From positions 160,001 to 224,000 of the forward strand of contig CAWBAT010000006.1 in NCBI GenBank assembly GCA_963786955.1: a stretch of 64,000 nucleotides of DNA, in the 5' to 3' direction. This DNA comes from an uncultured Acidimicrobiia bacterium (GTDB lineage Bacteria > Acidobacteriota > Terriglobia > Versatilivoradales > Versatilivoraceae). Below the pieces are notes generated by a model, which was not told where the DNA came from, did no database searches, and saw only the letters and a list, made by a program, of their open reading frames with translations. Positions 10,971-60,677 of the stretch are shown here, piece after piece (the stretch's first letter is position 1; each line of letters begins with the position of its first letter). The position numbers and the translations under genes are program-made.

Positions 10971-10983
10971 TTAGGAGAACATT

Positions 10984-15419: not shown

Positions 15420-15475
15420 GTGGAGCGGGCGCCCCGGCGCACGCTTGAACCCGCACGGGGGGACGGCGGTCCCAC
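15420..15475. repeat. Degenerate GTGG-type REP-like inverted pair
   Basis: GTGGAGCGGGCGCCCCGG...GGGGGACGGCGGTCCCAC. Confidence 0.4.
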
Positions 15476-15720
15476 GTGCCCGTTCCGTTGTCATTGGTAT
15501 GCTTTTTCCCCATTGTTAGGTCGTGTAGGCTTTAAAGCCGGCACAAGCATTCAACTGAGGGTTCCGAATCCCGCATGTGGTCCTCCGAACTGGAATGAAT
15601 GGGATCCAATGGTTGGCCATTCCGATGCCGATTGACTTTTTTCCTAATCTCTTCCACAACACCGACGCAATAGTTCGTGCGAGATCGGACATTTACGAAG
15701 ATAATAAACCCATATGGGAA

Positions 15721-17221: not shown

Positions 17222-17907
17222 GCAAACCAACCCTACTCGTGGTGGATGACGAACCCCAAATTCTGCGCGTGATGCGTGCGAGCTTGCCGGTGAGAGGGTA
17301 CCAAGTGATCACGGCCTCCAGCGGTGAGGAAGCGTTGGATCAAGTGGGCAAACAGGTCCCTGACTTGATCATTCTGGATTTGGCCATGCCCGGACTGACC
17401 GGCCTGGACGTGTGTCGGCGAATCCGCGAGTTCTCTGCGGTACCGATTATCGTGCTGTCAGCAAAAGGTTCAGACAGTGACAAGATTGCAGCACTAGACT
17501 TGGGCGCCGACGATTACATCACCAAACCCTTTAGTATGGATGAACTCCTCGCCCGTGTCAGGGCCGTATTGAGACGCTTGGCCGCTGGGGAATCGAACAC
17601 TCGCGTTCTGACCGTCGGTGACGTGACCATTGACGTCGATGAACGCCGGGTTGTCGTGGCAGACAAAGAGATCAAACTGACTCCCAAGGAGTTTGAGGTA
17701 CTGAAGTATTTGGTGAGCAACGCCGGTAAGGTGGTGACTCATCGAGCCTTGCTTCAAGCCGTATGGGGATGGGAATCCACTGATCAAACTGAATATTTGA
17801 GAGTCTTCATCAATCAACTCCGACGTAAGATTGAAGCGGATGTCAGTCACCCCCATTATCTCCTTACAGAGCCCTGGGTCGGATATCGGTTTGTTCCAAA
17901 CGAATGA
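17218..17907 (+). CDS. kdpE: OmpR-family response regulator KdpE
   Basis: VVDDE, ILDLAMP, DYITKPF, YLRVFINQLRRKIE and TEPWVGYRF motifs. Confidence 0.93.
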   Translation: MSKPTLLVVDDEPQILRVMRASLPVRGYQVITASSGEEALDQVGKQVPDLIILDLAMPGLTGLDVCRRIREFSAVPIIVLSAKGSDSDKIAALDLGADDYITKPFSMDELLARVRAVLRRLAAGESNTRVLTVGDVTIDVDERRVVVADKEIKLTPKEFEVLKYLVSNAGKVVTHRALLQAVWGWESTDQTEYLRVFINQLRRKIEADVSHPHYLLTEPWVGYRFVPNE

Positions 17908-18176: not shown

Positions 18177-18335
18177 ATGAAACAAAACGGATTACCCAAT
18201 TCAAATTGTAAAGCCACCGGCATTGTCTTTTGGCCAATGCTCGTGGCTTTTTTGCTTTTTGGGGTTTGGATTTTGTTGAGATTGTATTTTTCCGGAGACG
18301 ATTTTCTCCGCATGGAGCCTTCACAGGATGTCTAA
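18177..18335 (+). CDS. 52-aa single-TM leader protein overlapping the start of the KimA-like gene
   Basis: MKQNGLPNSNCKATGIVFWPMLVAFLLFGVWILLRLYFSG...; first ATG after the aptamer. Confidence 0.45.
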   Translation: MKQNGLPNSNCKATGIVFWPMLVAFLLFGVWILLRLYFSGDDFLRMEPSQDV

Positions 18336-20670
18336 ACAACCGAACGTTTCTTCAGACCGTACCACTCAGGTCGTCGTGGCTACCTCGGTGATGCTGACTT
18401 TTATCTCATTTTGGCGGGCGGCCGCCATTGTGCTGAACGACCTCGGCTCATCCGCTTATTATGTCGGAGGCATCGCGGAGCAGGCTGTTGGCCGTGCGGC
18501 TCCGTGGTTTATTCTGGGGGTCATGCTTTTTTCCTATGCCGTTCGAGCCGTTTACGTTGAGGCCTGCACCATGTTTACGCGTGGAGGTGTCTATCGCAAC
18601 GTCAAAGAGGCAATGGGTGGCGCATTTGCAAAGGTCTCTGTATCCGCTTTGATGTTTGATTATATCCTAACGGGACCAATCTCCGGGGTTTCTGCAGGCC
18701 AATATATCGTCGGGCTTTTGGCCCAAACCCTGAACTATTTCGGTCACTCCTGGGATCCGACCAAAGAAACGGTCAATCTTGTTCGCAGCAGTCTTTGCTG
18801 TTGCCATCACACTCTATTTCTGGTGGCGCAACACAAAAGGCATTCATGAATCCTCAGATGATGCGCTCAAAATCATGTATGTGACAACAGCAATGGTTGT
18901 CACCTTGATTCTCTGGTGCGGATTGACGCTTTGGATTCAGCCCGAGAAACGTCGTCTCCCTCCCAGCCCGGTCCCTTCGCACTTATCGTTTGATCACGAT
19001 GCGGTGGGATGGCTTCCTGATGCTTGCGCCCGGGAGCGCTCTCCGGTCAATTCCTGGTGAAGCCCATCAGGTTCCGGACAAACCGGAAAATCAACTCGAG
19101 CCGCAACCACATTATGGTATCCCGATCGAGGCAGGAAAACTGCTGGGCTTGATCGGGATACTGATCGCACTGGGTCACTCGCTGCTGGCCATGTCGGGCG
19201 AAGAAACTCTTGCTCAAGTCAACCGCGAACTGGAATACCCGAAACATAAGAACTTGATGCGAGCCGGGATGGTCATTTTTGTCTATTCTTTGTTGTTCAC
19301 ATCTCTCGTGTCCTTCTTCGCTTATGCCATAATCCCCGACAATGTCAGGCCCCAGTATTTCGATAACCTCATCAGTGGAATCGCCATGAACTTAGTCGGC
19401 CCGATGCCGCTACGTCTCATTTTTCAAGCTTTCATTGTGTTGGTTGGGTTCCTGATGTTGGCTGGTGCGGTCAATACCGCGATTATCGGGTCGAACGGTG
19501 TTCTTAATCGCGTCAGTGAAGATGGCGTGTTGACGGAGTGGTTCCGAAGACCCCACAAAAAATATGGAACGAGCTACCGAATGATCAATATGATCGTTCT
19601 GCTGCAACTGGCTACTATCATTGGATCACGCGGAAATGTCTACATATTGGGTGAAGCTTACGCGTTTGGGGTGATTTGGTCGTTCGCCTTTAATGCCCTG
19701 GCGATCCTTGTCCTCCGCTTCAAGGACAAGTCCCCGCGCGAATGGAAAGTGCCCTTTAATATTAGACTGGGAAAAATCGAGATCCCCTTGGGACTGGCCG
19801 GGGTCGCAACACATTCTCTTCGCACTGGCTGCAATTAATTTGATTACCAAACAGGTTGCAACGATCAGCGGACTTTTGATCACGACCGTCTTTGCGACGA
19901 CATTCTTTATCTCTGAGCGCATTACGCAACGGCGGCGCCTTCGTGAAGGGAATCATGGTCTCGACCAATTCCGGCTGGAGCCTCAGGAAGAAATTTCTAT
20001 GACTACGGTTGGCGTGCGCCCTGACAATACCCTTTGTCTTGTGCGGGACTACAATACCCTAGACCACGTAGCTAAAGTCCTTGAACTCACTCACACTGGT
20101 AAGAAAGACCTGGTCGTCATGACCGTTCATGTGATTCGAGGACCCAACGCCGGGTACAAGGGCATGAGTGAACAACGGCTTTTTACCGACTATGAACAGC
20201 TCCTTTTTAGCAAGGTTGTGGCTTTAGCCGAAAAATCGGGAAAACCGGCTCATCTGCTCGTTGTACCCTCTCCCGACATCTTTTCGGCCATTGCTGAAAC
20301 GGCTGCCCAACTCTATTCGGCTATGATCACGGCAGGAAGCTCCTCCGTCATGGCACCCGAGGAACAAGCCAGAAGAATGGGGCTGGCCTGGGATCGATTG
20401 ACGAACAAGCCGAAGCATCAAGTAGTCTTCCGTGTCATTGAGCCTAATGGGAAAATGCATGATTTTTCTCTCGGAGCTCATGCGCCGGATCTCTCTCAAG
20501 CGGATATCGACAAAATTCATGCCATCTGGCTTCAGCTGACCAGTAGGGCCGGGGGACCTCATTTGCACCACAAGGACATTGTTACGGTGGCCCTCGAGCT
20601 ACTTGAGCGCGAGATCTCTGGCAAGGAGTGGCAAGATGTTTTAGATCATGTCAACCGGGACAAAGAATAA
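18328..20670 (+). CDS. APC-superfamily K+ transporter, KimA(YdaO)-like, with C-terminal cytoplasmic domain; three apparent frameshifts
   Basis: ORFs 18328, 18779, 18990 and 19693 join; NDLGSSAYY and LMFDYILT match KimA DALSSVAY and LLVDYILT. Confidence 0.82.
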
Positions 20671-26179: not shown

Positions 26180-27407
26180 TCACCTTATCCGATGTGGCCG
26201 GAGCCGAATTAAAGGAGGGCGCCTACCCTCGACGCTCTTTGGCCACCGAAGGTCTGGCTCCCTTGGTATCGACCCGGGAGTCTTTCGTCGCTGAAGCGTT
26301 CTTGCTGAAAATTTCGTCGAAGATGGCGGTCTGGTCAGCGTTATCCCAATTCTGCAGGATCCCGCCATGCTCCTCTTTTGAGAAAAAGAGTTTCCCCTTC
26401 TCCTGGAATCGAAGTCCACTCTAACGAGATCTCCTAACGAAACCTGACTTGTGGCGACTAGATTCGATAATGGATAGACCAGATATCTTTCGAGAGCTCG
26501 TTTCAAGTGTCGAGCTCCATATTTCAAATCGGTCCCTTCGCTCAGTAGAAATTCCTTCGCATTCTGCGAACATTTGAAGATGAATTTCCCTTCCCCTCGC
26601 GCGTTCAGAATTCTCTCCTGGACCATCATCATTTCAATTTCCAATACTTTCTTGAGCTGGGTACTCTGGAGCGTGTTGAAGACTACGACCTTATCGATGC
26701 GGTTCATGAATTCGGGAGAAAATTTCCTCTTGGAGGCTTCAACTGCCGTCCTGTAGATCTTCTTATCGAGCTCACTTTCATCCGTATTGGAGACTGAAGG
26801 GGGTGCGAAACCCTAGGCCCCCAGAAATAAATTCGCCCATTTCTGCCGCTCCCAGATTGCTGGTCAAGATGATAATCGTCTTGCTCAGTCGACGCGCCGA
26901 TTATCTCCCAGGGTAAGCGTTGCCTTATCCAAAACCCCCAAGAGAAGCTGCCATAAGGCGTCGTTCGCTTTTTCGATTTCATCGAACAAGAAGAAAAGTC
27001 AACTTCAGCTCTATCCGTGTGGAACTGATCAATGGCTTCCTGGGTAAGCAACGGTGGGAGTCTCGCGATGTCCCAGATACCCGGGGGGAGAGCCAATTAG
27101 CTTCGCAATTTCATGACTATGTTGAAACTCCGCACAGTCAATCTTGATGACTGCTTTAGAATCTCCAAAGAGAATTTCAGCGGCGGCTTCGACAACTCTC
27201 GTTTTCCCAGATCCCGTAGGCCCAAGAAACAAGCAGATTTCCGATGGGGCGGCCTGGGGAAGCCATTCCTGAAAGGTAAATCTGGTAAAGCGCCGAAAGG
27301 CGACGAACGGCTCTTTCCTGGCCTACGACCTTGCCGAAAAGTTTGTCTTCGAAATCCTGTGCTTCAAAGCTTTTGATTGTCGGATCTAATAAAATTGGCT
27401 CGTTCAT
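26180..27407 (-). CDS. Stand-alone ClpA/B D2-type AAA+ ATPase (frameshifted)
   Basis: VVGQ, GPTGSGKT, KLIGSPPGY, FDEIEKA, NRID and YGARHLKR motifs; no D1 or N-domain. Confidence 0.85.
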
Positions 27408-28811: not shown

Positions 28812-30495
28812 TTGGACAGGTTCGCCGGGAATTCAACCAACAAGAATGAAGCCGGTTCAAACCCGGAAGAAAAGGACTCTCTCTCCCCTTTTCTACTCAG
28901 ACCGCCTGCGCGTCAGCAAATCGTTACGTCGATCTCTGGCACCCCAATCCAGCCACTTTATTCTGCGGAAGACTTAAAAGGATTCGACGATCAGCGGGAC
29001 CTCGGAAACCCCGGCTACCCTCCTTACACCCGCGGGATACATCCAGAAATGTATCGCGCGAAGACTTTGGACGATCCGGCAATTCAGTGGATTTGGAACA
29101 GCTGAAGACACGAACCAGCGATTTCATTATCTCCTGTCTCAAGGGCAGTCCGGACTTTCAGTTGCATTCCATCTGCCGACTTTAATGGGTCATGATTCTG
29201 ACCATCCCTTGTCGTCTTGGTGAAGTCGGGAAATGTGGCGTGGCAATGGATTCTTTGGCCGACATGGAAACGCTTTTCCGCGGAATTGATGTGGAGAAAA
29301 TCACCACTTCGATGACGATCAATGCGCCTGCTGCCATCATTTGGGCGATGTATCTCGTGAATGCCCAAAAATGCGGGTTCGACCTTAGCAAGATTTCCGG
29401 CACCATTCAGAACGACATCCTCAAAGAATACATTGCCCAAAAAACTTGGATTTTCCCGCCAACTCCTTCGATGCGACTCATCACGGACACTTTTAGATTC
29501 GGAGCCGAGAATATTCCGAAATGGAACACTATTTCCATCAGCGGCTACCACATCCGGGAAGCGGGTCCACGGCATTGCAGGAATTGGCTTTTACTCTCGG
29601 GATGGCGTCGAGTATGTTGAGGCGGCGATCAAAACGGGCTTGACGGTGGATCAATTTGCCCCTCGGCTTTCCTTTTTCTTTAACGCACACAATGATCTCT
29701 TTGAAGAAGCGGCCAAGTTCCGCGCAGCTCGAAAAGTCTGGTATCAGCTCATGCGAAAGCGTTTTAACGCCCAGGACCCCCGTTCCTGGATCCTCCGTTT
29801 TCACACGCAGACTGCTGGGTGTGCCCTGACGGCCCAACAACCTCATAACAATATCATTCGGACCACAATTCAGGCTCTGGCTGGGGTTCTCGGGGGAACT
29901 CAGTCGCTCCATACGAATTCAATGGACGAGACCTATGCCTTACCAACGGAATCGGCTGTCACCATCGCGTTGCGGACACAACAAATTCTCGCCCACGAAA
30001 GCGGAATCGCCCAATATCATCGATCCCTTAGCAGGGTCTTATTTCGTTGAAAAACTGACTCTTGAATTAGAGAAGGGGTGCTGGGAGTATTTTGATAGAA
30101 TTGATGCCATGGGGGGCATGGTGGCGGCGATTGAGAATGGCTTTCCTCAAAAAGAAATTCAGGAGGCTGCCTACCAATATCAGAAAGCCGTCGAAAACAA
30201 AGAGAAAGTCGTCGTCGGGGTCAATGCTTTTATTACTGAAGACGCGAGTCCTATTGAGACTCTCACTATTGACTCGCAAGTTGCAGAACGGCAAATGAAC
30301 CGGTTGCGGGAAATCCGGTCGGGTCGCAGCCAAGCCAGCGTCCACGCATGCCTAGGCGAACTGCGGCAGGCGGCTTCCGGCGCAGAGAATCTAATGCCTC
30401 ATTTCCTTCGATGCGTCCGGGAGTACGCTACTTTGGGTGAGATGTGTGACGTTTTGCGCTCTGTTTTTGGAACCTATGTGGAGCCTATCTTCTAA
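28812..30495 (+). CDS. B12-dependent acyl-CoA mutase large subunit (frameshifted)
   Basis: [39 protein letters not shown] and GGTQSLHTN motifs. Confidence 0.9.
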
Positions 30496-31054: not shown

Positions 31055-32526
31055 ATGATGATGCGCTACCACGGAATCCTGGGACTGATGGTTCTCCTCG
31101 GTTTGGCCGTGATACTATCGTCCAATCGAAAAGCCATACGGTGGAAGATCGTCTGGTTGGGATCCGCATTGCAATTTGTGCTGGCCGTCATTGTTCTTAA
31201 GGGCGATTGGTTGAGCCATTGTTTTGATTGGCTGGCGGTGACGCTGGGGACGAGTATTAGTCCTGATCCTCCTACAAATCATTTTATCAAGCTCTGGCGA
31301 CACTGGTTCTTTCAACGGTCGGCGGGATGGCTTCGTTTTCTGCGGAGCCTGATTCGTCTTCAAGGGTCATCGTCATTCTCAAATTCAATCTCATCTTGAG
31401 TGTTTTTTTACCTGATGCGCGATGTCGTTAACCATCTGATCGCCTATGCTGCGGAAGGAGCCCGATTTATATTCGGCCCGCTGGCTATTGAAACTGGCGA
31501 AAGAAGCTTAGGGTTTATTTTTGGTTTTCAAGTTTTGCCAACGATTATATTTCGTCGCATCAATATTTGCTATTCTCTATTACCTGGGGATTATGCAGCT
31601 GGTGGTTCAGAAGTTTGCCACGATCATGTCTCGTTGGATGTCCATCAGTGGGGCGGAGTCTGTCTCCGTCGCAGCCAGTATCTTCATCGGCCAAGCCGAA
31701 GCTCCTCTAACCATTCGTCCCTTTATTGCTGAGATGACGCGATCGGAACTCATGACAATCATGACGGCGGGAATGGCCCATGTTTCGGGGGCCATCATGG
31801 CGGCCTACGTCCTCGTAGCACACGTCGATGTGGTGCATTTATTGACTGCCGTGATCATGACTGCTCCGGGAGCCATCATGATATCGAAAATCATCGTTCC
31901 AGAGACGGAAACACCACGTACCCAGGGGGAAACGAAGATTGAAATTCCCTCTTCGGATGTCAATCTTGATTGATGCCGCTGCCCGAGGCGCCTCAGAAGG
32001 GTTGCAACTATCATTAAATGTTGGGGCGATGCTCATCGCTTTTATCGCCCTGGTGGCGCTCGTAAATGGGATTTTCGGAGGGATTCATCATGCTTTGGAA
32101 AATCTGCAGTCGAGTCCCACGAGAGGGCTGATGCTCCTCGGTGAAACCGCCCGATTCTGTGCCACAAAACTTGCAGCAAATTCTAGGAGTATTCTTCAGC
32201 CCCATGGCATGGCTGATGGGCGTGAGTTGGAAAGATTCGATTCAGGTCGGTAATTTGCTTGGAACAAGGATGGTTCTCAATGAGTTCGTCTCATTTTTAA
32301 AGCTCGGGGAAATCTCGGACGAGCCTGGACCACCGATCTTTTGTCATTTCCACCTTCGCATTGTGCGGATTCGCAAATTTTGGGTCCATTGCCATTCAAG
32401 TTGGGGGTATTGGCGCTTTGGCCCCCTCCCGTCGACATGATCTTGGCTTCCCTTGGCCTGAGGGCCATGATCGCAGGCACGATCGCGAATTTTCTGTCTG
32501 CCACGATTGCGGGTGTTATTATTTAG
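31055..32526 (+). CDS. NupC/CNT family nucleoside transporter (frameshifted)
   Basis: [23 protein letters not shown] and [17 protein letters not shown] motifs. Confidence 0.88.
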
Positions 32527-41986: not shown

Positions 41987-42746
41987 ATGCCTGAAACCCT
42001 CTCTTCACCCAAGCCAAGCAATCATTCACTCGCCAGCAGATCCCCCCCACGCGGCTCAAACACGGCGATCATCTCGATGGACGAAATCAAGGAGAGTTTA
42101 CGATACAGGGGAAGTCCGGATTGAAGCCTTAAGAAACTTTTCATTGGAAATTCCCCGCGGCCAATTTATTGCGATAATGGGGATGTCAGGATCTGGGAAA
42201 TCGACCTTACTTAATATTCTTAGGATGTCTCGATCATCCAACACACGGCACCTATAAGCTGGATGGAGTGGACGTTTCCACATTCAGCCCAGCTCAAAGA
42301 GCCGACATTCGAAATCAGAAGATCGGTTTTATCTTTCAGAGCTTCAATTTGCTTCCTCGAACCACAGTATGGGAAAACGTGGAAGCACCTATGTTATATT
42401 CCGGCGTCCCCAAGCAGGAGAGATCGCATCGAATCCAGCATGCACTAGGGGTTGTGGGCATCTCGGAAAAGGCCAAAGCCAATCCGAATCAGCTTTCTGG
42501 GGGCCAGCAACAGAGGGTTGCCATCGCCAGAGCTCTGGTCAATCGTCCCGCCATTCTCTTGGCGGACGAGCCGACCGGTAACCTGGACAGCACGACATCC
42601 GAAGAGATCATGCGATTTTTGCAGTCCGTTAATCGAGATGAAGGGATCACTTTGGTGATGGTGACCCACGAGCATGAAATCGCCGCTTACGCACCAGGGT
42701 CATCCATATGAAGGATGGACTCATGATCCGTGATGAGACCCGATAA
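41987..42746 (+). CDS. MacB/LolD-type ABC ATP-binding protein (frameshifted)
   Basis: [24 protein letters not shown] and ADEPTGNLD motifs. Confidence 0.88.
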
Positions 42747-42778
42747 TTAAGGATTAGCGGGTGTGCTCGAGGTTTCCC

Positions 42779-44001
42779 ATGAATTGGTTCATGACCTTTC
42801 GAATTGCTCTCAAGGCCCTCAGCCGAAACAAGATCCGGTCTATATTGACGATGCTGGGAATCATCATCGGCGTCGGCGCGGTCATTGCGATGGTGAGTCT
42901 CGGCAAGGGAGCACGGCACCAAATTCAAGAAGAAATCGCTTCGATGGGGACCAATACCCTCATGGTGTGGACCGGCACGAATCGAAATTGGGGCATCCGT
43001 GGCGGGGCTGGAACCATGAACACGCTAACCGTGGAGGACTTCGAGGCGATCTTACGTGAATGTCCTGCCGTAAAAATAGTCAGTCCGAGTGCAAATAGCA
43101 TGGCTCAAGTTGTCTTTGGAAATCAAAACTGGAATAGCCGGATTGAAGGCTTTAATGAACAACTCCCCGCTCTGCGAAACTGGAAGGTCTCCCAGGGAAG
43201 CTTCTTTGACGAATCTCACGTCAAGACCGCGGCCCGAGTGGCCGTCTTAGGGCAGACGGTTGTCACTCAATTATTCGACGGCGTTGACCCGGTTGGACAG
43301 ACGATTCGCATTCGCAACCTGTCATTTCAAGTGATTGGAGTCTTGGAGAAGAAAGGGTTTAATGCCTTTGGGGAGAGATCAAGACGACACCATCATCGTC
43401 CCCTTTACGACGGTCCAGAAGAAATTCCAGACAAGCGTCCAGTATGTGCAATCTGGCATCGTCGGGGCAGTGAGTGCTCGTGCCACTTATGCCGCCCAAG
43501 AGCAAATCACCGAATTGTTGCGGCAACGGCACCACGTCGGACCCACTCAAGACAACGATTTCACTGTTCGTAATCTGAGTGAAGTTGCGGAAGCCGCGGA
43601 TGCCACGAATCGGATTCTGACTGGACTGCTCGCAAGCATTGCCGCTGTTTCGCTGCTCGTTGGCGGAATTGGGATCATGAATATCATGCTAGTTGCCGTC
43701 ACCGAGCGAACTCGCGAGATTGGGATACGCATGGCCATCGGAGCTCGCCCCAGCCACGTTCGGATCCAGTTTCTAACCGAGTCGATTGTACTGTGTACCT
43801 TGGGCGGATTGCTCGGATTAGCCCTGGGCGTGGCGGCATCCATGGCCCTTTCTCAAACTGATGGGTTGGCCTACCCTGATCTCGGCCGATTCCATCTTGA
43901 TCTCGATTTTCTTTTCAGCATTTATCGGAATATTTTTCGGCTACTACCCTGCTCATAAGGCAGCGGGGCTGGATCCCATTGAAGCTCTTCGTTACGAATA
44001 G
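42779..44001 (+). CDS. MacB-like ABC permease (frameshifted)
   Basis: [34 protein letters not shown] and [10 protein letters not shown] motifs. Confidence 0.9.
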
Positions 44002-46004: not shown

Positions 46005-46287
46005 TGCCTTTAAACGCTAATCGCCAGCGGCCTCAACATTCCGAGTTGCCGTTTCAGCCTTTTTTCGTTTCTTCATTTCACTAATCGCAACTCTGAAACC
46101 CACCGTCCGTTGACATGGTCTCATCAGAGATGTTTCATCGTCGCCGCCAATTGCTACCCTCAGGAAAATCATCGCAATCTGCTTGATTGCCCGAAGAAAT
46201 AGTTGCGTCACATAAAACCAAATGCAAGAATCCCGTATTCCAATTGTTTTTAGATTTGACGCAGCGCAAGCTGAACTGGAGGCCTGC

Positions 46288-47959
46288 ATGTCCGTTGTTT
46301 GGAGCTTGATGTTGCTTTTGTTACTGCCCGTTTATTCTCACAGTCAGACGGGGGAAAAACTTGTGATCCCCGATGATGTCCTCTGGGAACCGGATATTGA
46401 ATATCTGACGGCCGGAGCCAAGACGGTGAATCTGGCTATGGATGTGGTGACTCCGAAAGGTACCGGTGGACCTTACCCTGCTGTGGTCTGCATCCACGGA
46501 GGCGGCTTTCGCAAAGGAGAGCGCCAGAGTCAACTTCCATTGTGTATTAAGCTCGCAAGAAGAGGCTACGTGGCGGCTACGATTTCTTATCGCCTCTCCC
46601 CCAGGGATCAATTTCCCGCACCGGTACATGACGTCAAGACCGCGATTCGTTTCTTACGTGCCAACGCCGTTCGATTCAACATCGACCCCGCACACATAGG
46701 GGTCACGGGTTTTTCGGCTGGCGGTCATCTGGCCTTGTTCCTCGGTCTGACAGGAGGAATCCCCGAATTCGAGGGTCCAGGCCCTTACCGGGAACAGTCC
46801 AGCCAGGTTCAATGTGTCGTGAATTTCTTTGGCCCGACGGATTTTACAAAGTCCTACGGGAAAAGCGTCGACGCAGGCTGAAGTTCTTCCTCTCTTCCTG
46901 GGTGGAGACCTGGAGCACGAACGACTCGCCCACATGCAAGCGAGTCCGCTCAATTGGGTTACTCCCAATGCCTCACCCGTGCTGACAATCCATGGAACTG
47001 AAGACCGTTACGTGGCCTACGAACAGGCAGTCTGGATTACGGAGCGTTTGAAGTCCGCCGGAGTAGAAAGCGAGTTGCTCACCCTCGAAGGGGCTGGGCA
47101 TGGATTCAAGGGCACGGATGCTGAGAAAGCCGAAAAAGGGCTTTTTGAATTCATGGACAGTCATCTAAAAGTGCGACCCGAGAGACAGCTTCTCATCGCC
47201 GATCATGGTCCGGGGGCCGAAATTCTAGCTATCTCCTGGCCTTCGGGAAAGGTTTTGTGGCGCACCCCCAATCAGCGTGGACGCGATGTCCAGGCCTTAG
47301 CCAGTCAACACGTACTCTTTACGATGGACTTCGGCCGGAGGGTTGTCGAAATGGACGGGGACCATCACATTGTTTGGACTTATGGCGCCGCAGAAGGGCT
47401 GGAGCAACCCGTCTCCGCTCAACGGCTCAGGAATGGAAATACGATGATCGCGGACGCTAAGTCCGGGAAGATTATTGAGGTAGATTCAGCCCACAAAATC
47501 GTTTGGGAATACCAGAACCCGGACATCGGAAACATGCGAATGCGCTCCGTCCGGCCAACAGATCAAGACACCTTTCTGATAGCCGTCGAAGCTGCTGGGA
47601 AAATTATTGAAGTGAACCGCTCCGGTCAGATCATCTGGAGCTACGTGGCCGAAGGAGGAAATACGCGATTCCCTTATCAATCCCATCGTCTTGAAAACGG
47701 CAATACGCTCATTAGCCTTGCTGAACCAGGGGAATTAATCGAGGTTGACAAGGCGGGCAAGACGGTCCGCACAATTGCAGGGAACAAATTAGATTTACGT
47801 TTTGGCTGGGTCACAGGGACGCAGCCTCTCCCCGACGGAGGTCTCATTGTCGCGGACTACACTGGCAAGCGCCTCGTGGAATTGGATTCGTCCGGGAGGA
47901 TAGTGCACGAATTACGCAACCCGGTCTGGAACATCGCCAGCATCTCTCTAGTCCCATAG
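46288..47959 (+). CDS. Secreted alpha/beta-hydrolase (HGGG, GxSxG) fused to a beta-propeller; one frameshift near 46875
   Basis: IHGGGF, GFSAGGHL, HGTED and GAGHG, then repeated RL.NGNT.I and IIEV...G..(V/I)W units. Confidence 0.8.
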
Positions 47960-50544: not shown

Positions 50545-51023
50545 TCGATCCTGATGGAACACCCATATTAATGAGAAACTCCACCATGAGTTGAGCGATG
50601 GGTGGATCCCCTTCCCTGACAATCCCCCCGCGAAACAATCAACACTGATCCTGGAATGAGTCGATATAGGCGAATGCCCTCAACCAGTCTGCAGACCGTC
50701 TCCTGCTGAAAGGTTACCGGTGGTAGGCGTCTCCGAGAAATTCTTCCGTTGCTATAGAGAACGACAATCGAACGGGCATCACCCACGATACCCATATCGA
50801 GCAACGGAGGAAATTGGCGTTCCAAATGAAAAAATGGCAAGTCGACTATCGGGGTGCAACAAATAGCAATGAAAAGACTGGCTCCTATGATGAGCCGCAT
50901 ATTCCCGACCTTTCACTAATTGCGATGGATTGACAGTGCCAAACCAATCACAAATAAAACGGGAACGATACCGACTGGGAGAGCATGTTCTCGAAAATGA
51001 GCTTAATAATTATCACAAACACC
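50545..51023 (-). pseudogene. Decayed and truncated YdcF/ElyC (DUF218) gene
   Basis: LERQFPPL...IVVL...RLVEGIRLY...LIVS, then AQLMVEFLINMGVP in another frame; stop, frameshifts and missing C-terminus. Confidence 0.6.
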
Positions 51024-51756: not shown

Positions 51757-54700
51757 ATGTCTTCTATGTCGCGGAAAATACAGAGGCACAAAGGGAAGCC
51801 TGGGGAAAGCACAAAATGGGTAATTCTAATCCTCCCATTAATGATTATCTCTGCAATCTTCCTTTTTGTCGGTCGAGGAAACGAGCACCCGGTTCTCCCA
51901 GGCAAGTCGAATCTAGCTGAGCCCTCAAAGTTAAGCTATAACCAACTAGCTAGTCCTTCGCTCCATCAGCGAGCGTTTTCTAACCCTCCAGGATTTGGCC
52001 GAACAGTTTATCCCTTCTCGGTAATCGTTGGGGGCATTGCTGATGCAGACGATCTGCGCTCGTCCCTGGCAAAAGATCGAGTTGCAGCCACCCATTTTTC
52101 TGACTTTGATATTAAGCACGCACGGATTGTGAGACTAGATACTGACAAGAGCGCCTATGTCTCTTACCGGATGAACAACCAGATATACTGGACTCGGAAA
52201 CGGATCAAGTTAACTAAGGGAGAATTCCTGGTTACGGACGGGAAAAACTATGCGAGAACCCGCTGCGCTAACCGAATATCTGATGAACGCCAAGTCCCCG
52301 TGTCGACAGAGCAGCCATCCGAACTAACATTAAACACCCCACTGCCTAATGCCGCTGGACACTCTCCGCCGGCTCTACCAGGAATTCGTGGAGAGGGGCC
52401 TGGAGGATACCTTTTCCCACCCGTTGGAATGTTGCTTCCTCCTGACTATCCAACGGAAAATATACCACCAACGCCTTTCACACCAGTAAACTATTTCCCA
52501 ACGACCCCAACGCCCATTCCTGTGCCTCCGGTAATCGGCCCACGACAGACTAATAGCTCTAGCTCAGGTGGTTCGAGTTCCGGCGGCTCTAGCTCCGGCG
52601 GCTCTAGCTCCGGCGGCTCTAGCTCTGGTGGATCGAGCTCCGGCGGATCCAGCTCCGGCGGTTCGAGCTCCGGTGGATCCAGTTCTAGTGGATCTAGTTC
52701 CGGAGGCTCCAGCTCAGGTGGTTCGAGTTCTAGTGGCTCCAGTTCGGGCGGATCCAGCTCCGGTGGATCAACTTCTAGTGGATCGAGTTCCGGAGGTTCC
52801 AGTTCCGGTGGATCAAGTTCGGGTGGTTCCAGTTCTGGCGGTTCCAGTTCTGGCGGTTCCAGTTCTGGCGGGTCCAGTTCGGGAGGATCGAGTTCCGGAG
52901 GTTCCAGCTCAGGTGGTTCGAGTTCTGGTGGCTCCAGTTCGGGCGGATCCAGCTCCGGAGGTTCCAGCTCAGGCGGTTCGAGTTCTAGTGGCTCCAGTTC
53001 TGGCGGCTCTAGTTCAGGTGGATCGAGCTCGGGTGGATCGAGTTCTAGCGGATCGAGCTCGGGCGGGTCGAGTTCTGGAGGTTCAAGTTCCGGTGGATCA
53101 AGTTCGGGTGGTTCTAGCTCCGGTGGATCAAGTTCCGGTGGATCAAGTTCGGGTGGTTCGAGTTCCAGTGGCTCCAGCTCCGGTGGATCAAGTTCTGGCG
53201 GATCTAGCTCCGGTGGCTCGAGCTCCGGAGGCTCCAGTTCGGGTGGTTCGAGTTCTGGCGGCTCCAGTTCGGGAGGATCCAGTTCCGGTGGATCGAGCTC
53301 TGGAGGTTCGAGTTCCAGCGGCTCCAGTTCTAGCGGCTCCAGTTCCGGTGGTTCCAGCTCCGGTGGGTCAAGTTCGGGTGGTTCCAGTTCCGGAGGCTCT
53401 AGCTCCGGTGGTTCCAAGTTCAGGCGGTTCCAGCTCAGGCGGTTCCAGCTCAGGTGGATCGAGCTCAGGTGGATCGGCTTCCGGTGGCGGCTCCAGTTCC
53501 GGTGGATCAAGTTCGGGTGGTTCCAGCTCGGGTGGTTCCAGCTCAGGTGGATCCAGCTCAGGCGGATCGGCTTCCGGTGGCGGCTCCAGTTCCGGTGGAT
53601 CAAGTTCGGGTGGTTCCAGCTCAGGTGGTTCCAGCTCAGGTGGATCCAGCTCAGGCGGATCGGCTTCCGGTGGCGGCTCCAGTTCCGGTGGATCAAGTTC
53701 GGGTGGTTCCAGCTCAGGCGGATCGGCTTCCGGTGGCGGCTCCAGTTCCGGTGGATCAAGTTCGGGTGGATCTAGCTCGGGTGGATCGAGCTCAGGCGGT
53801 TCCAGCTCAGGTGGATCGAGTTCCGGGGGCTCTAGTTCTGGTGGTTCCAGCTCCGGTGGGTCCAGTTCCGGAGGCTCTAGCTCCGGTGGTTCTAGCTCCG
53901 GTGGATCGAGTTCGGGAGGGTCGAGTTCTGGAGGTTCAAGTTCCGGCTGGGGATCGAGTTCGGGTGGGTCGAGTTCTGGAGGTTCAAGTTCCGGCGGGTC
54001 CAGTTCTGGTGGATCGAGTTCGGGTGGGTCGAGTTCTGGAGGTTCAAGTTCCGGTGGATCAAGTTCGGGTGGTTCCAGCTCCGGTGGGTCAAGTTCGGGT
54101 GGTTCCAGTTCCGGAGGCTCTAGCTCCGGCGGATCCAGTTCCGGAGGCTCTAGCTCCGGCGGGTCCAGTTCTGGTGGATCGAGTTCGGGTGGGTCGAGTT
54201 CTGGAGGTTCAAGTTCCGGTGGATCAAGTTCGGGTGGTTCCAGCTCCGGTGGGTCAAGTTCGGGTGGTTCCAGTTCCGGAGGCTCTAGCTCCGGCGGATC
54301 CAGTTCGGGAGGCTCTAGCTCCGGTGGTTCCAGTTCCGGAGGCTCTAGCTCCGGCGGATCCAGTTCGGGAGGCTCTAGCTCCGGTGGTTCGAGCTCCGGA
54401 GGCTCCAGTTCCGGTGGTTCCAGCTCCGGTGGGTCAAGTTCGGGTGGTTCCAGTTCCGGAGGCTCTAGCTCCGGTGGTTCCAGCTCTGGTGGATCGAGCT
54501 CAGGTGGATCGAGCTCAGGTGGATCGGCTTCCGGTGGCGGCTCCAGTTCCGGTGGATCAAGTTCGGGTGGTTCCAGCTCAGGTGGATCCAGCTCAGGCGG
54601 ATCGGCTTCCGGTGGCGGCTCCAGTTCCGGTGGATCTAGTTCCGGTGGTAGCTCAGGTGGATCCAGCTCAGGCGGATCGGCTTCCGGTGGCGGCTCCAGT

Positions 54701-57700
54701 TCCGGTGGATCAAGTTCGGGTGGTTCCAGCTCAGGTGGATCTAGTTCTGGTGGATCTAGTTCTGGCGGATCGAGTTCGGGTGGGTCGAGTTCTGGAGGTT
54801 CAAGTTCCGGAGGCTCTAGCTCCGGTGGTTCTAGCTCCGGTGGATCCAGTTCTGGCGGATCGAGTTCGGGCGGATCGAGTTCGGGAGGGTCGAGTTCTGG
54901 AGGTTCAAGTTCCGGTGGATCCAGTTCCGGAGGCTCTAGCTCCGGCGGGTCCAGTTCTGGTGGATCGAGTTCGGGTGGGTCGAGTTCTGGAGGTTCAAGT
55001 TCCGGTGGATCCAGTTCCGGAGGCTCTAGCTCCGGCGGGTCCAGTTCGGGTGGATCAAGCTCGGGTGGATCGAGTTCTGGCGGATCGAGCTCGGGTGGGT
55101 CGAGTTCTGGAGGTTCAAGTTCCGGTGGATCAAGTTCGGGTGGTTCCAGCTCCGGTGGGTCCAGTTCTGGTGGATCGAGTTCTGGCGGATCGAGTTCGGG
55201 TGGGTCGAGTTCTGGAGGTTCAAGTTCCGGTGGATCCAGTTCCGGAGGCTCTAGCTCCGGCGGGTCCAGTTCTGGCGGTTCCAGCTCAGGCGGTTCCAGC
55301 TCAGGTGGATCGAGCTCAGGTGGATCGAGCTCAGGTGGATCGGCTTCCGGTGGCGGCTCCAGTTCCGGTGGATCAAGTTCGGGTGGTTCCAGCTCAGGTG
55401 GATCCAGCTCAGGCGGATCGGCTTCCGGTGGCGGCTCCAGTTCCGGTGGATCTAGTTCCGGTGGTTCCAGTTCCGGTGGTTCCAGCTCCGGTGGGTCCAG
55501 TTCGGGTGGATCTAGCTCGGGTGGATCTAGCTCGGGTGGATCGAGTTCTGGCGGATCGAGTTCGGGTGGGTCGAGTTCGGGAGGTTCAAGTTCCGGTGGA
55601 TCCAGTTCCGGAGGCTCTAGCTCCGGTGGTTCTAGCTCCGGTGGATCCAGTTCTGGCGGATCGAGCTCCGGCGGGTCCAGTTCGGGAGGCTCTAGCTCCG
55701 GTGGTTCCAGTTCAGGCGGTTCCAGCTCAGGTGGATCGAGCTCAGGTGGATCGAGTTCCGGTGGTTCGAGCTCCGGAGGCTCCAGTTCAGGTGGTTCGAG
55801 CTCCGGAGGCTCCAGTTCAGGTGGATCAAGTTCTGGCGGATCGAGCTCGGGTGGGTCCAGTTCGGGTGGATCAAGTTCGGGTGGTTCGAGCTCCGGTGGC
55901 TCCAGTTCAGGTGGTTCGAGCTCCGGCGGCTCCAGTTCAGGCGGATCGAGCTCGGGTGGGTCCAGTTCGGGCGGATCCAGTTCTGGCGGATCGAGCTCTG
56001 GTGGTTCGAGCTCTGGAGGCTCCAGTTCAGGTGGATCCAGCTCAGGCGGTTCCAGTTCGGGTGGATCGAGCTCGGGTGGGTCCAGTTCGGGCGGATCCAG
56101 TTCGGGTGGCTCAAGTTCCGGCGGTTCCAGCTCAGGTGGATCGAGCTCGGGTGGGTCCAGTTCGGGCGGATCCAGTTCGGGTGGCTCAAGTTCCGGCGGT
56201 TCCAGCTCAGGTGGATCGAGTTCAGGTGGATCGAGCTCAGGTGGATCCGCTTCCGGTGGCGGCTCCAGTTCCGGTGGATCAAGTTCGGGTGGTTCCAGCT
56301 CCGGTGGATCTAGCTCGGGCGGATCGGCTTCCGGTGGCGGTTCCAGTTCCGGTGGATCCAGTTCTGGCGGCTCGAGTTCCGGTGGATCAAGTTCGGGTGG
56401 TTCCAGTTCAGGTGGATCCAGCTCAGGTGGGTCCAGTTCGGGAGGTTCGAGCTCTGGTGGTTCGAGTTCCGGCGGCTCCAGTTCCGGTGGTTCCAGTTCA
56501 GGCGGATCGAGCTCAGGTGGTTCGAGTTCCGGAGGCTCCAGTTCCGGTGGTTCCAGTTCAGGCGGTTCGAGCTCAGGTGGATCGAGTTCCGGTGGTTCGA
56601 GCTCAGGTGGATCGAGTTCCGGTGGTTCGAGCTCCGGAGGCTCCAGTTCCGGCGGCTCCAGTTCAGGCGGTTCGAGCTCAGGTGGATCGAGTTCCGGTGG
56701 TTCGAGCTCCGGAGGCTCCAGTTCCGGCGGTTCCAGCTCAGGTGGATCGAGTTCAGGTGGATCGAGTTCAGGTGGATCGAGCTCGGGTGGTTCCAGCTCA
56801 GGGGGTTCCAGTTCGGGTGGTTCAAGTTCCGGCGGCTCTAGCTCCGGTGGTTCCAGCTCAGGCGGTTCCAGCTCAGGCGGTTCCAGCTCAGGCGGTTCCA
56901 GTTCGGGTGGTTCAAGTTCCGGCGGCTCTAGCTCCGGTGGTTCCAGCTCAGGCGGATCAAGTTCGGGCGGTTCCAGCTCCGGTGGCTCTAGCTCCGGTGG
57001 TTCCAGCTCAGGCGGATCAAGTTCGGGCGGTTCCAGCTCCGGTGGATCAAGTTCGGGCGGTTCCAGCTCGGGTGGTTCCAGTTCGGGTGGTTCAAGTTCC
57101 GGCGGCTCTAGCTCCGGTGGTTCCAGCTCAGGCGGATCAAGTTCGGGTGGATCTAGCTCGGGTGGATCGAGCTCAGGCGGTTCCAGCTCCGGTGGATCAA
57201 GTTCGGGCGGTTCCAGCTCGGGTGGTTCCAGTTCGGGTGGTTCAAGTTCCGGCGGCTCTAGCTCCGGTGGTTCCAGCTCAGGCGGATCAAGTTCGGGTGG
57301 ATCTAGCTCGGGTGGATCGAGCTCAGGCGGTTCCAGCTCGGGCGGGTCGAGTTCTGGAGGCTCCAGTTCAGGTGGATCGAGTTCCGGAGGCTCCAGTTCA
57401 GGTGGATCGAGCTCGGGCGGGTCGAGTTCTGGAGGTTCAAGCTCAGGCGGTTCCAGCTCCGGTGGATCGAGTTCAGGAGGCTCCAGTTCAGGTGGATCGA
57501 GCTCGGGCGGGTCGAGCTCGGGCGGGTCGAGTTCTGGAGGTTCAAGCTCAGGCGGCTCTAGCTCCGGTGGATCCAGCTCGGGTGGTTCGAGCTCTGGTGG
57601 TTCGAGCTCGGGTGGTTCCAGCTCAGGTGGATCTAGTTCCGGTGGATCCAGCTCTGGTGGATCCAGCTCGGGTGGTTCCAGCTCGGGTGGTTCCAGCTCA

Positions 57701-58075
57701 GGTGGATCTAGTTCCGGAGGCTCTAGCTCGGGCGGTTCCAGCTCGGGTGGTTCCAGCTCAGGTGGATCTAGCTCAGGTGGATCGAGCTCGGGCGGGTCGA
57801 GTTCTGGCGGTTCGAGCTCCGGTGGCTCCAGTTCCGGTGGTTCAAGTTCGGGCGGTTCCAGCTCGGGAGGATCCAGTTCGGGCGGATCTAGCTCGGGTGG
57901 GTCGAGTTCTGGAGGTTCAAGCTCAGGTGGATCGAGTTGTGGTGGATCGAGTTCTGGTGGATCTAGCTCGGGTGGCCCCCCCCATTCAGTCCCTGAGCCC
58001 AACAGCCTGATTCTCCTTACATCGGGATTGGGGAGCTATTTAGTCCACAAGTGGAGAAAAAAGAAGAAGCGTTAA
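51757..58075 (+). CDS. Giant PEP-CTERM surface protein (~2,100 aa) with a (GGSSS)n tract; one +1 indel at ~53416
   Basis: N-terminal TM; conserved domain VYPFSVI.GG...YVSYR....YWT...TDG...ARTRCANRIS; Pro-rich linker; GS tract; C-terminal VPEP, TM and basic tail (VPEPNSLILLTSGLGSYLVHKWRKKKKR); ORFs 51757 and 52568 join. Confidence 0.9.
52567..57970 (+). repeat. ~5.4-kb 15-bp coding minisatellite GGN GGN TCN AGY TCN (~360 units)
   Basis: Directly visible; unit count estimated from span/15. Confidence 0.97.
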
Positions 58076-58103
58076 TTACTTGGCCCCAAGATACTAATTC
58101 ATT

Positions 58104-58138
58104 GGCTGGACGCAAGTTGTCCAGCCTTTTATTTTTTT
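58104..58138 (+). terminator. Rho-independent terminator
   Basis: GGCTGGAC-GCAAGTT-GTCCAGCC followed by TTTTATTTTTTT. Confidence 0.85.
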
Positions 58139-58350
58139 GGGAGCTATTTAGCGCTGCGAAAACTTAGCTTCTCTACGCCACATTCCTTCAAACTTGATAA
58201 CTTGTATCCGTTTGATCATTTGTGGCGGTAATGGTCACAAACCAACGGGAGGTGTTTTTTTCATCCATGAATATTTATAAAGTTTTTCTAATGACATACC
58301 GAAAGGAATAAGTCGTACAGAATCTTCACCCTCGTTGGGGGATTTGTTCC

Positions 58351-59505
58351 ATGAGTAATGGGTCAGAGGTATTAACACAAAACATACGAAGCGTGGCCAT
58401 GCCAAACATTTTTGTGCGCTTTCGCGCGTACTTTTCGGGCGTCGCCTTATATGGTATGGCTATTGCGATCTATTCCTTCCTCCCCTACTACCGGGGCTTC
58501 ATCTCCCGTTCGGATTTAGACATCAGTTACTTGCCCGACATTCTCCGGCACACCCTTGGGGTGGCCCTTGCGGTATTGGGTGCAAATACTTATGGACTGA
58601 TCATACATTGTTATATTGGCTACGTTGTTATCGGCTGCTTTTGGTTCCTCTTTTACCCTAGGGCTCGCGAAAATACTCGGACGGTAATTTTCTGGCGCGT
58701 GGCCGGCCGAACCATGAGAGGCTGGCGAGACTTGTTTATGAACCGCAGTATGGCCGTTCCACCCGAGACACAACTTTCGAAAGAGGAAAAGTCAACAATG
58801 CTGTTTTTCCTCGTCAAGTTTTTTTTCGTTCCCGTTATGGTTAACTTTTTTTTCGCCAACCTGGGCACATTTCTCAAAAGCGGGCACAGTCTCCTCTTTG
58901 CGCCCCTGGCGGATTCTGGGGAGGGCAGTAATCGGCTCTTATACTTCACGGTTCTCAATTTCATGCTCATTGTTGACACTGGATTTTTTGTATTCGGTTA
59001 TCTTTTTGAATTTGAGTTGTGGGGGAATGAGTTACGTTCCACAGAGTCAACCATTTTCGGCTGGGTGGTAACCCTGGCCTGCTACCCGCCGCTTAACGGC
59101 CTTGTGACTCATGAGATTGGATGGGGTTCAAGCGACTATGCCGTTTTCCCATCGCCCTTGGCAGCCTCTGTAACCGTGACCGTGAGTCTCGCCCTCTTCT
59201 TCGTCTACACTTGGGCCACGGTGTCATTAGGGCTCAAAGCGAGTAACTTAACTAACCGCGGCATCGTCAAAACCGGGCCATACGCCTATGTCCGTCACCC
59301 GGCTTACATTACCAAAAATCTGCACTGGTTGGTAATGGGCCTGCCACTGATTGCCGTCAATTGGGTCGCTGCCCTCTCGATTCCCGGCTGGGAAGCGATC
59401 TACTTCCTCCGCGCCGTTACGGAAGAACGGCACCTGCTGGCCGACCCTCAATACCAAACCTATTGCAAGAAAGTTCCCTACCGCTTTATCCCAGGGGTTA
59501 TTTGA
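58351..59505 (+). CDS. Isoprenylcysteine carboxyl methyltransferase (ICMT/PEMT)-family membrane protein
   Basis: Multiple TMs; SNLTNRGIVKTGPYAYVRHPAY, RAVTEERHL and Y..YCKKVPYRFIP motifs. Confidence 0.85.
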   Translation: MSNGSEVLTQNIRSVAMPNIFVRFRAYFSGVALYGMAIAIYSFLPYYRGFISRSDLDISYLPDILRHTLGVALAVLGANTYGLIIHCYIGYVVIGCFWFLFYPRARENTRTVIFWRVAGRTMRGWRDLFMNRSMAVPPETQLSKEEKSTMLFFLVKFFFVPVMVNFFFANLGTFLKSGHSLLFAPLADSGEGSNRLLYFTVLNFMLIVDTGFFVFGYLFEFELWGNELRSTESTIFGWVVTLACYPPLNGLVTHEIGWGSSDYAVFPSPLAASVTVTVSLALFFVYTWATVSLGLKASNLTNRGIVKTGPYAYVRHPAYITKNLHWLVMGLPLIAVNWVAALSIPGWEAIYFLRAVTEERHLLADPQYQTYCKKVPYRFIPGVI

Positions 59506-59738
59506 CAAGAGTCAGGCGGTCATCTCACGCCCAACAAGTTTTTCAAAAACTAGTTTTCGTTGAAAATCTACAGTTTCTCATTTTCCCTCCCACCGAAATT
59601 CATCCACCTTTTCCTCTACTCTCCCGAACGAATATTTGCCACTAACGGCCTCCGAGGTTGAACTTGCTATTCCCCCGGGTTTGTAGAATAATTCAGTAAC
59701 ATTCAGGCTAAGCGGCTAGAGTGGTTCTTCAGTGGGAC

Positions 59739-60677
59739 ATGACCTTGGCAATGATAAGAACGAATATTCGATTTTCCAGACATCCAGACTGGTTGCGAGT
59801 TCGCTTCCCGGGCGGTGAGAATTTCCACGATTTGAAGCGCTTGTCAAGAATCACTCTTTACATACTGTCTGTGAGAGCGCCCAATGCCCGAATATTGGTG
59901 AATGCTGGGACAAAGGGAACGGCTACTTTCATGATCCTGGGGAATATTTGCACCCGGCGCTGTGGTTTTTGTGCCGTCACAACCGGACGGCCCCTTAATT
60001 ACGACCGGGATGAGCCCTTGCGCGTAGCCAGAGCCGTCCAGATCTTAAACTACGACATGCCGTCATTACATCGGTGGATCGCGATGACCTCGAAGATGAA
60101 GGCTCTCATGTCTTTGCAGAGACGATCCGCAGGATCCACGAAATCAATCCTGCCACAAAAGTCGAAGTACTGGTTCCGGACTTCAAGTCATCTCTAAGAA
60201 ATCTTGAAATTGTCATCAAGGCGGCCCCAGACGTATTGGCCCATAATCTGGATACTGTTCCGCGCCTTTACCCCAAAGTTAAACCAAAATCCTCTTACAA
60301 ACTCCTTGGAGCTGTTACGACACACGAAGAGGATGTCAGCCACAATGACCACAAAAGCGGGTTTCATGCTGGGTTTAGGGGAGGAGATTGAAGAAATTTA
60401 TGAGGGCATGGATGACGTTCTAGAGGCAGGAGTCGATATTTTGACGATCGGCCAGTATCTGAGGCCCTCTTTGAAACATCTTCCGCTTTTAAAGCATTAT
60501 CATCCCGACGAGTTTAAGGAATTGAAGCAAATCGGCGAACGCAAAGGGATCCCCCACGTTGAATCCGGGCCTCTGGTTCGAAGTTCCTATCATGCCGCCG
60601 AGCAAGTAGATGAATTGCTGGATCGGAGTGTTTCAAATCTTTTTCCTATTTTTCCAGCCGAACCATCAACCCATTAA
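59739..60677 (+). CDS. lipA: Lipoyl synthase (frameshifted)
   Basis: [37 protein letters not shown] and [11 protein letters not shown] motifs. Confidence 0.92.

Follow-up and report, generated by a model that had tools for sequence, protein, structure and literature searches.

The window analysed here is a stretch of 64,000 nucleotides from the genome assembly of an uncultured acidobacterium (GenBank GCA_963786955.1, contig CAWBAT010000006.1, positions 160,001 to 224,000 of the forward strand), and our subject is a plus-strand locus within it, at 51757–58075, which when read through a break at position 53416 forms one gene of 553 + 1,552 = 2,105 codons. From N- to C-terminus the translation runs through a hydrophobic segment, a conserved head, a Pro-rich hinge, a Gly/Ser tract built of GGSSS pentamers and a PEP-CTERM tail, after which comes a terminator hairpin (Table 1); the Gly/Ser repeat alone accounts for 86% of the protein. 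Every element listed in the initial annotation (N-terminal hydrophobic segment, head with a single Cys, Pro-rich hinge, repeats, VPEP tail and terminator) was found again at the same position. We consider it rather likely that the locus is one gene, encoding an envelope protein of about 2,105 residues in a soil/sediment-type member of the Acidobacteriota, with the A at 53416 taken as an assembly indel. The hydrophobic N-terminal segment, predicted to be a signal anchor or signal peptide, is present, but head and tail are separated in the assembly by that one frameshift, and the frame-1 open reading frame (ORF) as assembled continues out of frame to 53775. Within about 8 kb lie genes for MFS and EamA proteins, a DUF218 remnant, a gene resembling isoprenylcysteine carboxyl methyltransferase (ICMT) directly downstream, lipA and rlpA.

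Tandem Repeats Finder reports the tract as one array of period 15 with 358.3 copies and 76% matches, and at about 62% its G+C content stands above the roughly 48% of the flanks. Read through the break it comprises 1,810 residues, namely 1,072 Ser, 721 Gly, 11 Ala, 2 Pro and one each of Asn, Thr, Trp and Cys. The figure of about 360 pentamers given in the initial annotation therefore stands as a length and not as a number of perfect GGSSS units, of which there are 335 (92.5% of the tract) beside about 27 imperfect ones. All 335 perfect units are written GGN GGN TCN AGY TCN, no other order of the Ser codon types being present, and they come in 100 distinct synonymous versions with third-position entropies of 1.0–1.9 bits. 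Self-alignment gives a unit-to-unit identity of 77–79% at any offset, where a hand calculation from the base frequencies leads one to expect 0.79 if third positions are independent, and the longest exact repeats inside the array measure 150–199 bp. The repeat is old, its peptide sequence is under strong purifying selection and its third codon positions are fully randomised. Synonymous sites are saturated while 99% of the residues are Gly or Ser, and this excludes a recent burst of slippage as well as a stack of identical copies; the 77–79% unit identity and the exact repeats shorter than 200 bp likewise rule out such a burst and a collapsed assembly of identical copies. Nor is the array there by chance, as counts of a four-unit codon pattern rule out (272 forward matches in the source genome, none in reverse and none in the control). 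The same pattern was found in none of 400 other genomes of the class. Both junctions of the array are covered by short-read contigs from four sediment runs of four studies (52470–52649 and 57905–58209, among others).

Two further observations concern the repeat itself. Another metagenome contig (L152, match 8001–8302) carries a Gly/Ser tract of at least 315 residues that runs off the contig end behind an unrelated N-terminal region, and long Gly/Ser tracts thus extend beyond the PEP-CTERM family. The stop-free repeat also yields other long open frames, at 53368–58002 on the minus strand and 53454–58010 on the plus strand, both of which gene callers may report; the third plus-strand frame was considered as a product and rejected.

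The C-terminus has the order VPEP-NSLILLTSGLGSYLVH-KWRKKKKR-stop, with PEP motif, hydrophobic helix and basic cluster all present. TIGR02595 matches it with 20.1 bits (20.8 bits when the genome was scanned), which exceeds the cut-off of 16, and Pfam PF07589 with 18.6 bits, slightly short of the 20.7 required. It is also the only PEP-CTERM candidate found in the genome, being the one match among 60 scored candidates and the one convincing case among nine regular-expression matches. The TIGR02595 score of 20.1 bits and the composition bear out the earlier proposal that the protein is cargo of an exosortase (PEP-CTERM) system, its conserved head accompanied by a Gly/Ser tract that is uncharged and extreme. 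The initial annotation had also called for the exosortase gene to be located, and the genome's only exosortase was found on another contig (C5:1311738-1312493; PF09721 179.9 bits; TIGR02602 131 bits, cut-off 105.6). An EpsI part follows it in the same frame with one in-frame TAA between (locus L090, 9631–11181), which points either to two separate genes or to a substitution error within a fused gene of XrtW/XrtD type. Within about 7 kb of the exosortase lie a TIGR03019 FemAB-family XrtA/PEP-CTERM-associated gene (about 5.7 kb upstream), wecB and a sugar-nucleotide dehydratase/epimerase gene; the exosortase sits in a polysaccharide-type locus.

The head, by its sequence and by its fold, belongs to no described group that we could find. 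It has no Pfam or NCBIfam match, and its sequence profile finds nothing in the PDB at E ≤ 1. AlphaFold2 models it with a predicted local distance difference test score (pLDDT) of 88.6 and a predicted template modelling score (pTM) of 0.79; with this model Foldseek finds nothing in the PDB at E ≤ 0.001, a wide VIA-align search of the fold reaches a best Z of 2.2 with no match to a solved fold, and the Atlas returns only hypothetical Acidobacteriota clusters, at 0.83. Relatives by sequence are plentiful. A word-indexed search found 21 homologous proteins, 320 stretches in species-representative genomes were confirmed by tblastn (the 80 listed being almost all from metagenome-assembled genomes of Acidobacteriota), and a profile search with a threshold of E ≤ 0.001 gave 2,630 cluster representatives, among which the top 150 are 180–439 residues long. 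In an alignment of 81 sequences (A2), for which the window head is the reference row, 19 columns are invariant (S, G, L, F, S-R, W, G-E, D-G, A-R-T-R-C, N-R and P), and the window head has them all. A PEP-CTERM-like tail ends 75 of the 83 ORF rows with the ARTRC signature, and the eight rows that end otherwise include the window's own broken ORF and three ORFs truncated by contig ends. Five relatives with a variant signature (L003 and L006–L009) were left out of this count; by eye they have VPEP or IPEP tails. From these data the head family appears to be a large, unnamed family of acidobacterial PEP-CTERM proteins with a hydrophobic segment, a head of about 120 residues, a low-complexity linker and a PEP-CTERM tail.

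The length of its linker is what sets the window protein apart. The comparison of linkers among head homologs that the initial annotation had suggested gives 70–297 residues, rich in Pro and Gly, after the head signature in the 82 other ORF rows versus about 1,930 residues in the window. A search for longer relatives found none among 1,999 candidates of 474–2,000 residues, although this search was a weak one, and a metagenome scan with the head protein produced 148 pattern matches, none of which was confirmed. In its hydrophobic segment, its head with every invariant residue, its PEP-CTERM end and its syntenic slot the window protein resembles the rest of the family as aligned in A1 and A2; the order MFS – DUF218 – head-family gene – lipA – rlpA recurs in four relatives of the same taxonomic family. 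It differs in that other members have 100–300 residues of Pro/Gly sequence after the signature, and in that none of them, at 87 loci of head-family genes with ordinary linkers, has an ICMT-like gene beside it. It is thus probable, in our judgement, that in the lineage of the window the usual Pro/Gly linker of 100–300 residues has been extended by about 1,810 residues of (GGSSS)n. Three genomes of the same family (G004, G008 and G002; loci L003, L006 and L008) carry a divergent XrtW-like exosortase beside an ordinary head-family PEP-CTERM gene of about 300 residues, which suggests a dedicated exosortase–cargo pair in the lineage of the window. These are the only exosortases in the flanks of the 87 head-family loci, and since all three come from the window's own family the adjacency is lineage-specific rather than general to the head family.

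The gene that accompanies the Gly/Ser tract is of another kind. Directly downstream lies a gene for a protein with an ICMT-type C-terminal domain (PF04140, 33.3 bits, cut-off 24, residues 296–362; profile match to PDB 4a2n_B at E 3.5e-8) behind an extra N-terminal membrane part of about 290 residues. It scores 42.8 bits against the protein-S-isoprenylcysteine O-methyltransferase equivalog model NF040696 and so stays below that model's cut-off of 160. The likeness to the ICMT family (PF04140, PDB 4a2n) is confined to the C-terminal 90 or so residues, and the window protein differs from it in being about twice as long, in its membrane part and in lying far below the equivalog cut-off; a prenylated substrate, moreover, is not expected here, where the neighbours are a Gly/Ser PEP-CTERM protein and, at loci L135 and L130, an exosortase. 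A metagenome collection was scanned by codon pattern for at least four GGSSS units, and most of the 56 loci obtained are short linkers of 20–140 residues in unrelated lipoproteins or secreted proteins. A PEP-CTERM tail closes the tract at exactly three of the 56 loci (L144, L130 and L135), each located at the start of its contig, and in all three an ICMT-like gene follows directly downstream, with 99%, 69.5% and 70.5% identity, respectively, to the window copy. In L135 a full-length exosortase W comes next on the same strand (NF038142, 477.4 bits, cut-off 425, positions 3–494 of 494), and the contig of L130 ends, after the ICMT-like gene, in the start of an exosortase gene. At a further locus (L114) a Gly/Ser tract that has no PEP-CTERM tail is followed by an ICMT-like homolog of 36–37% identity.

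Away from such tracts the methyltransferase gene is rare. It was found in none of the 30 other genomes of the family (the order-level search sample consisted of the same 31 genomes as the family-level one), and in the phylum sample 5 of 400 other genomes have a match at E ≤ 1e-10, limited in four of them to between a third and a half of the protein, at its C-terminal end; the one better homolog (37% identity, genome G235) has no Ser/Gly-rich gene adjoining. Its 11 closest database relatives (67–99% identity) all lie on contigs of 1.4–9.4 kb, and a twelfth has no size on record; small contigs of this sort fit breakage at an adjacent repeat, though this is circumstantial. Taken together, the gene neighbourhoods point to a conserved partnership between the (GGSSS)n-PEP-CTERM end and the ICMT-like methyltransferase, one which appears to be undescribed. 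Our literature searches found no paper linking exosortase with isoprenylcysteine carboxyl methyltransferase or PEP-CTERM with ICMT, none combining PEP-CTERM with Acidobacteria and exosortase, and, judged by titles, nothing substantive on XrtW or exosortase W.

Table 1. Positions, in window coordinates, of the parts of the Gly/Ser gene, its flanking features and the split genes of the window.
Feature	Position	Strand	Description
Gene 5' part, frame 1, 553 codons	51757..53415	+	Start ATG at 51757; hydrophobic segment, head, hinge and first ~288 Gly/Ser residues (translation)
N-terminal hydrophobic segment, residues 21-39, after a basic stretch	51817..51873	+	19 residues, WVILILPLMIISAIFLFVG; homologs have an equivalent segment
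Conserved head domain, residues ~78-200	51988..52356	+	Invariant ...SYR..WT..KGE..TDG..ARTRC.N; one Cys (ARTRCANR)
Pro-rich hinge, residues ~201-265	52357..52551	+	Translation; aligns with the start of the homologs' Pro/Gly-rich linkers
(GGSSS)n array, 15-nt units GGN GGN TCN AGY TCN	52567..57975	+	Tandem Repeats Finder, composition, codon structure, self-comparison
Extra A, frame 1 to frame 2	53416	+	ggt ggt tcc [a] agt tca, read as GGS, a, SS
Gene 3' part, frame 2, 1,552 codons and stop	53417..58075	+	Rest of the Gly/Ser tract and PEP-CTERM tail, ...GGPPHSVPEPNSLILLTSGLGSYLVHKWRKKKKR, stop at 58075 (translation)
PEP-CTERM sorting signal: VPEP, hydrophobic helix, basic tail	57989..58072	+	TIGR02595 above cut-off; tail identical in L144, conserved in L130 and L135
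Terminator-like hairpin and T run	58104..58136	+	Hairpin 58104-58126 of 9 pairs, 6 of them G-C, then T run
ICMT-like membrane methyltransferase, 384 aa	58351..59505	+	PF04140 match; PDB 4a2n profile match
DUF218 (ElyC/YdcF-like) gene remnant	50568..50900; region 50568-51000	-	Adjoins the head-family gene in relatives (synteny)
AA_permease_2, split	18280-19835		Profile 1-115 and 189-388
MM_CoA_mutase (methylmalonyl-CoA mutase), split	29361-30492		Profile 219-362 and 361-512
Nucleos_tra2_C (nucleoside transporter), split twice	31512-32437		Profile 1-33, 47-91 and 97-147
ABC_tran (ABC ATPase), split	41988-42708		Profile 1-33 and 35-136
BD-FAE, split			Profile 1-150 and 161-215
MacB_PCD/FtsX	42758-43955		Multidomain gene, split
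KdpD	14062-17218		Multidomain gene, split
ClpB-like	26183-27322		Multidomain gene, split
GAF/HisKA			Multidomain gene, split
Esterase/propeller gene	46222-47959		Split

Whether the locus encodes one protein turns on the extra A at 53416. Both sides of it read GGSSS, the 5' side in frame with the head and the 3' side in frame with the PEP-CTERM tail. At least ten genes in the 64-kb window are split by frameshifts, at many places in the region 10975–47959, and five of them lie in pieces with complementary Pfam profile coordinates (Table 1). With ten or more breaks per 64 kb, one break is to be expected in a gene of 6.3 kb. In both same-genus genomes lipA (315–320 residues) and the GAF–His kinase gene (599–651 residues) are single ORFs. 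L144, a Joint Genome Institute metagenome contig of 2,292 bp, is 97.3% identical to window positions 57846–60137 and differs from it by four indels. Three of these lie inside lipA (window 59721–60677; at 59838, 59918 and 60046), which stays open in L144, and the fourth is at 58132 in the T run of the terminator, where the window is one T longer than L144 and than the contigs of three of the four short-read runs. P0003, the protein-database entry closest to the head (88% identity, contig of 119,916 bp), is itself shifted, at a run of five A, into the window's +1 frame. We conclude that the break is quite likely an assembly error. The frameshift on which the initial annotation made its reading depend is thus present in the assembly, but the window genes that are split here and intact in relatives make it a probable artefact. 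The split KdpD belongs to a Kdp potassium-uptake cluster elsewhere in the window (10975–17904), together with KdpC, a hybrid sensor kinase and a response regulator.

Several observations nevertheless weigh against a single giant cargo protein, and most of them would be accounted for if the frameshift were real, in which case the locus would be a recently inactivated pseudogene or would yield a product of 672 residues (head, 288 Gly/Ser residues and an out-of-frame tail) with no PEP-CTERM anchor. The gene is broken as assembled, and no contig of related strains in the four short-read runs bridges 53416. The DUF218 neighbour is degraded beyond simple indels, and truly so in appearance, its pieces lying in two frames with about 60 residues missing; both same-genus genomes have lost the whole segment, the MFS gene being followed directly by lipA. 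The genome holds no exosortase of XrtW grade, its only one reaching neither the XrtW cut-off (252 bits against 425) nor that for XrtA and sharing only 23–24% identity with the XrtW of the L135 cassette, and expression data for the gene were looked for and none found. We still think a real frameshift unlikely, because the 4.66 kb after the break remain open in the GGSSS frame with tail and terminator intact, because housekeeping genes of the window are often frameshifted although they are intact in relatives, and because the gene of the ICMT-like partner shows no break and shares 99% identity with its copy in L144. Surface proteins are often phase-variable, and the shift needed here is one of +1, so that programmed frameshifting past the break or a phase-variation switch might be proposed for a protein of this kind; we regard either as very improbable, the site (tcc-aag-ttc) having no known slippery or stall motif and just an AA dinucleotide, and the many other frameshifts of the window needing no such explanation.

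The array might also be real in architecture and far off in assembled length through misassembly of the repeat, which seems to us somewhat less likely still than a real break. Its length rests on one error-prone assembly with many indel errors, and among the short-read contigs of related strains no contig spans it. Two low-confidence joints in one run (X2) skip 1,444 and 3,436 bases, with 20 letters on the shorter side, and were set aside. L144 differs from the window at 21 third positions within the first 75 or so nucleotides of the contig, which could reflect strain-to-strain differences in the order of the units or unreliable sequence at the end of a contig; the comparison of L144 with the window is accordingly invalid as a test for selection acting on the tail, all 21 differences falling in this part and the units probably not being orthologous. 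Set against a wrong length are the randomised third positions and the exact repeats below 200 bp, which mean that long reads should place uniquely, and the recovery in independent runs of pieces from 22–26 of 30 bins of the stretch, many of which also fit a second place in the array. That the real product is instead the antisense ORF at 53368–58002, (PPELE/PPELD)n, we find scarcely credible, even though the codon argument is symmetric: this frame is open for 1,544 residues and, read as (ELEPP/ELDPP)n, likewise has its variable bases at third positions. Against it stand the missing start context, the lack of a signal and of any non-repeat domain, and its end at the frameshift; moreover, one position of its peptide would hold Asp about as often as Glu (derived from the base counts for unit position 6), while the sense peptide does not vary. 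The sense strand is fixed by the head and the PEP-CTERM tail, which are joined in frame with the tract in the window, and by the same arrangement of tract and tail in three other contigs.

If the gene is indeed one, its product would follow the route of other PEP-CTERM proteins. The precursor would be exported by Sec, the C-terminal helix would hold it in the inner membrane, and exosortase would cut at VPEP, as knowledge of the family suggests. From its composition the tract would serve as a long, uncharged, hydrophilic and disordered spacer or matrix polymer. We estimate its contour length at about 650–690 nm (0.36–0.38 nm per residue), so that the several hundred nanometres proposed initially are correct as a contour length, that is, as an upper bound; as the size to be expected they are too large, since by polymer theory an unmodified Gly/Ser coil of 1,810 residues should measure only tens of nanometres. 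The idea of a long leash for the head is doubtful. Some 40 residues separate the head from the N-terminal hydrophobic segment, whose length would suffice for an uncleaved membrane anchor, so that the head may be retained at the inner membrane and processing take place at the C-terminal end. Glycosylation of the roughly 1,000 Ser residues, also put forward initially, is possible, with nothing observed in its support: the tract's companion gene encodes an ICMT-like methyltransferase and not a glycosyltransferase, and no glycosylation genes are seen beside the window gene among its neighbours within about 8 kb.

The ICMT-like protein would be a membrane methyltransferase dependent on S-adenosylmethionine (SAM) and would act in the same pathway, as suggested by a gene linkage that is conserved across diverged lineages and that grows, in L135 with its full exosortase W, into a three-gene cassette, with the exosortase start in L130 alongside. 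Enzymes of the ICMT type take their SAM from the cytoplasm, at the membrane's inner face. For the PEP motif, the original description predicts a position at the outer face (PMC1569441). With the methyl donor on one side and the cleavage site on the other, a cytoplasmic tail, the leftover anchor peptide or a lipid would be a likelier target than the new C-terminus of the mature cargo, although this is speculation. A wider proposal, which we put forward tentatively and think less likely than the simpler one of a single giant cargo gene, is that the (GGSSS)n-PEP-CTERM protein, the ICMT-like methyltransferase and exosortase W form a dedicated system for a giant uncharged protein 'exopolymer', in which the methyltransferase might carry out a new, sorting-linked methylation on the membrane-embedded C-terminal end of the cargo or on the receiving lipid or carrier, and in which the array might be stabilised by codon scrambling.

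Among known systems the closest is the cargo of PEP-CTERM/exosortase (EpsH, Xrt) sorting (Haft et al. 2006, PMC1569441; TIGR02595), with which the window protein shares a PEP motif, helix and basic tail, an exosortase in the genome and richness in Ser; that paper reports an enrichment of PEP-CTERM proteins in Thr, Ser and Asn and suggests their glycosylation. It differs in its near-pure (GGSSS)n tract of about 1,810 residues, its undescribed head and its ICMT-like partner. The serine-rich repeat proteins of Gram-positive bacteria offer a functional analogy in that a binding or functional domain is followed by a very long Ser-rich repeat and a C-terminal signal cut by a dedicated membrane enzyme. 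According to reviews, these proteins use LPXTG and sortase, an accessory Sec system and O-glycosylation (PMC6973325, PMC7661464), whereas the window protein has a PEP-CTERM signal, comes from a diderm phylum and repeats GGSSS. There is no homology between them. Polyserine and Gly/Ser linkers of bacterial carbohydrate-active enzymes and lipoproteins are likewise flexible, uncharged Ser/Gly spacers, but they span tens of residues, unlike the roughly 1,810 residues here. We take the protein to be a real, extreme variant of the PEP-CTERM cargo type with an undescribed conserved partner.

The indel-rich assembly means that ORF-based readings of the source genome need care, and more generally giant repeat genes in genomes assembled from long-read metagenomes carry indel artefacts, so that gene callers will split them. 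The tract is a natural counterpart, at about 1,800 residues, of the engineered (GGS)n linker, and its randomised synonymous sites make plain that selection acts on a homopolymer-like peptide, while the non-repetitiveness of the DNA may be selected for as well. The head family has a confident predicted structure and, in the searches made, no counterpart in Pfam or the PDB, and it merits a solved structure and a name of its own. To our knowledge the target to which exosortases attach their cargo, like the other needs of the pathway, is still unsolved. The cassette of cargo, methyltransferase and exosortase is a compact system for expression and mass spectrometry, and if the proposed three-gene system is true it would give a minimal and tractable handle on the sorting chemistry of exosortases.

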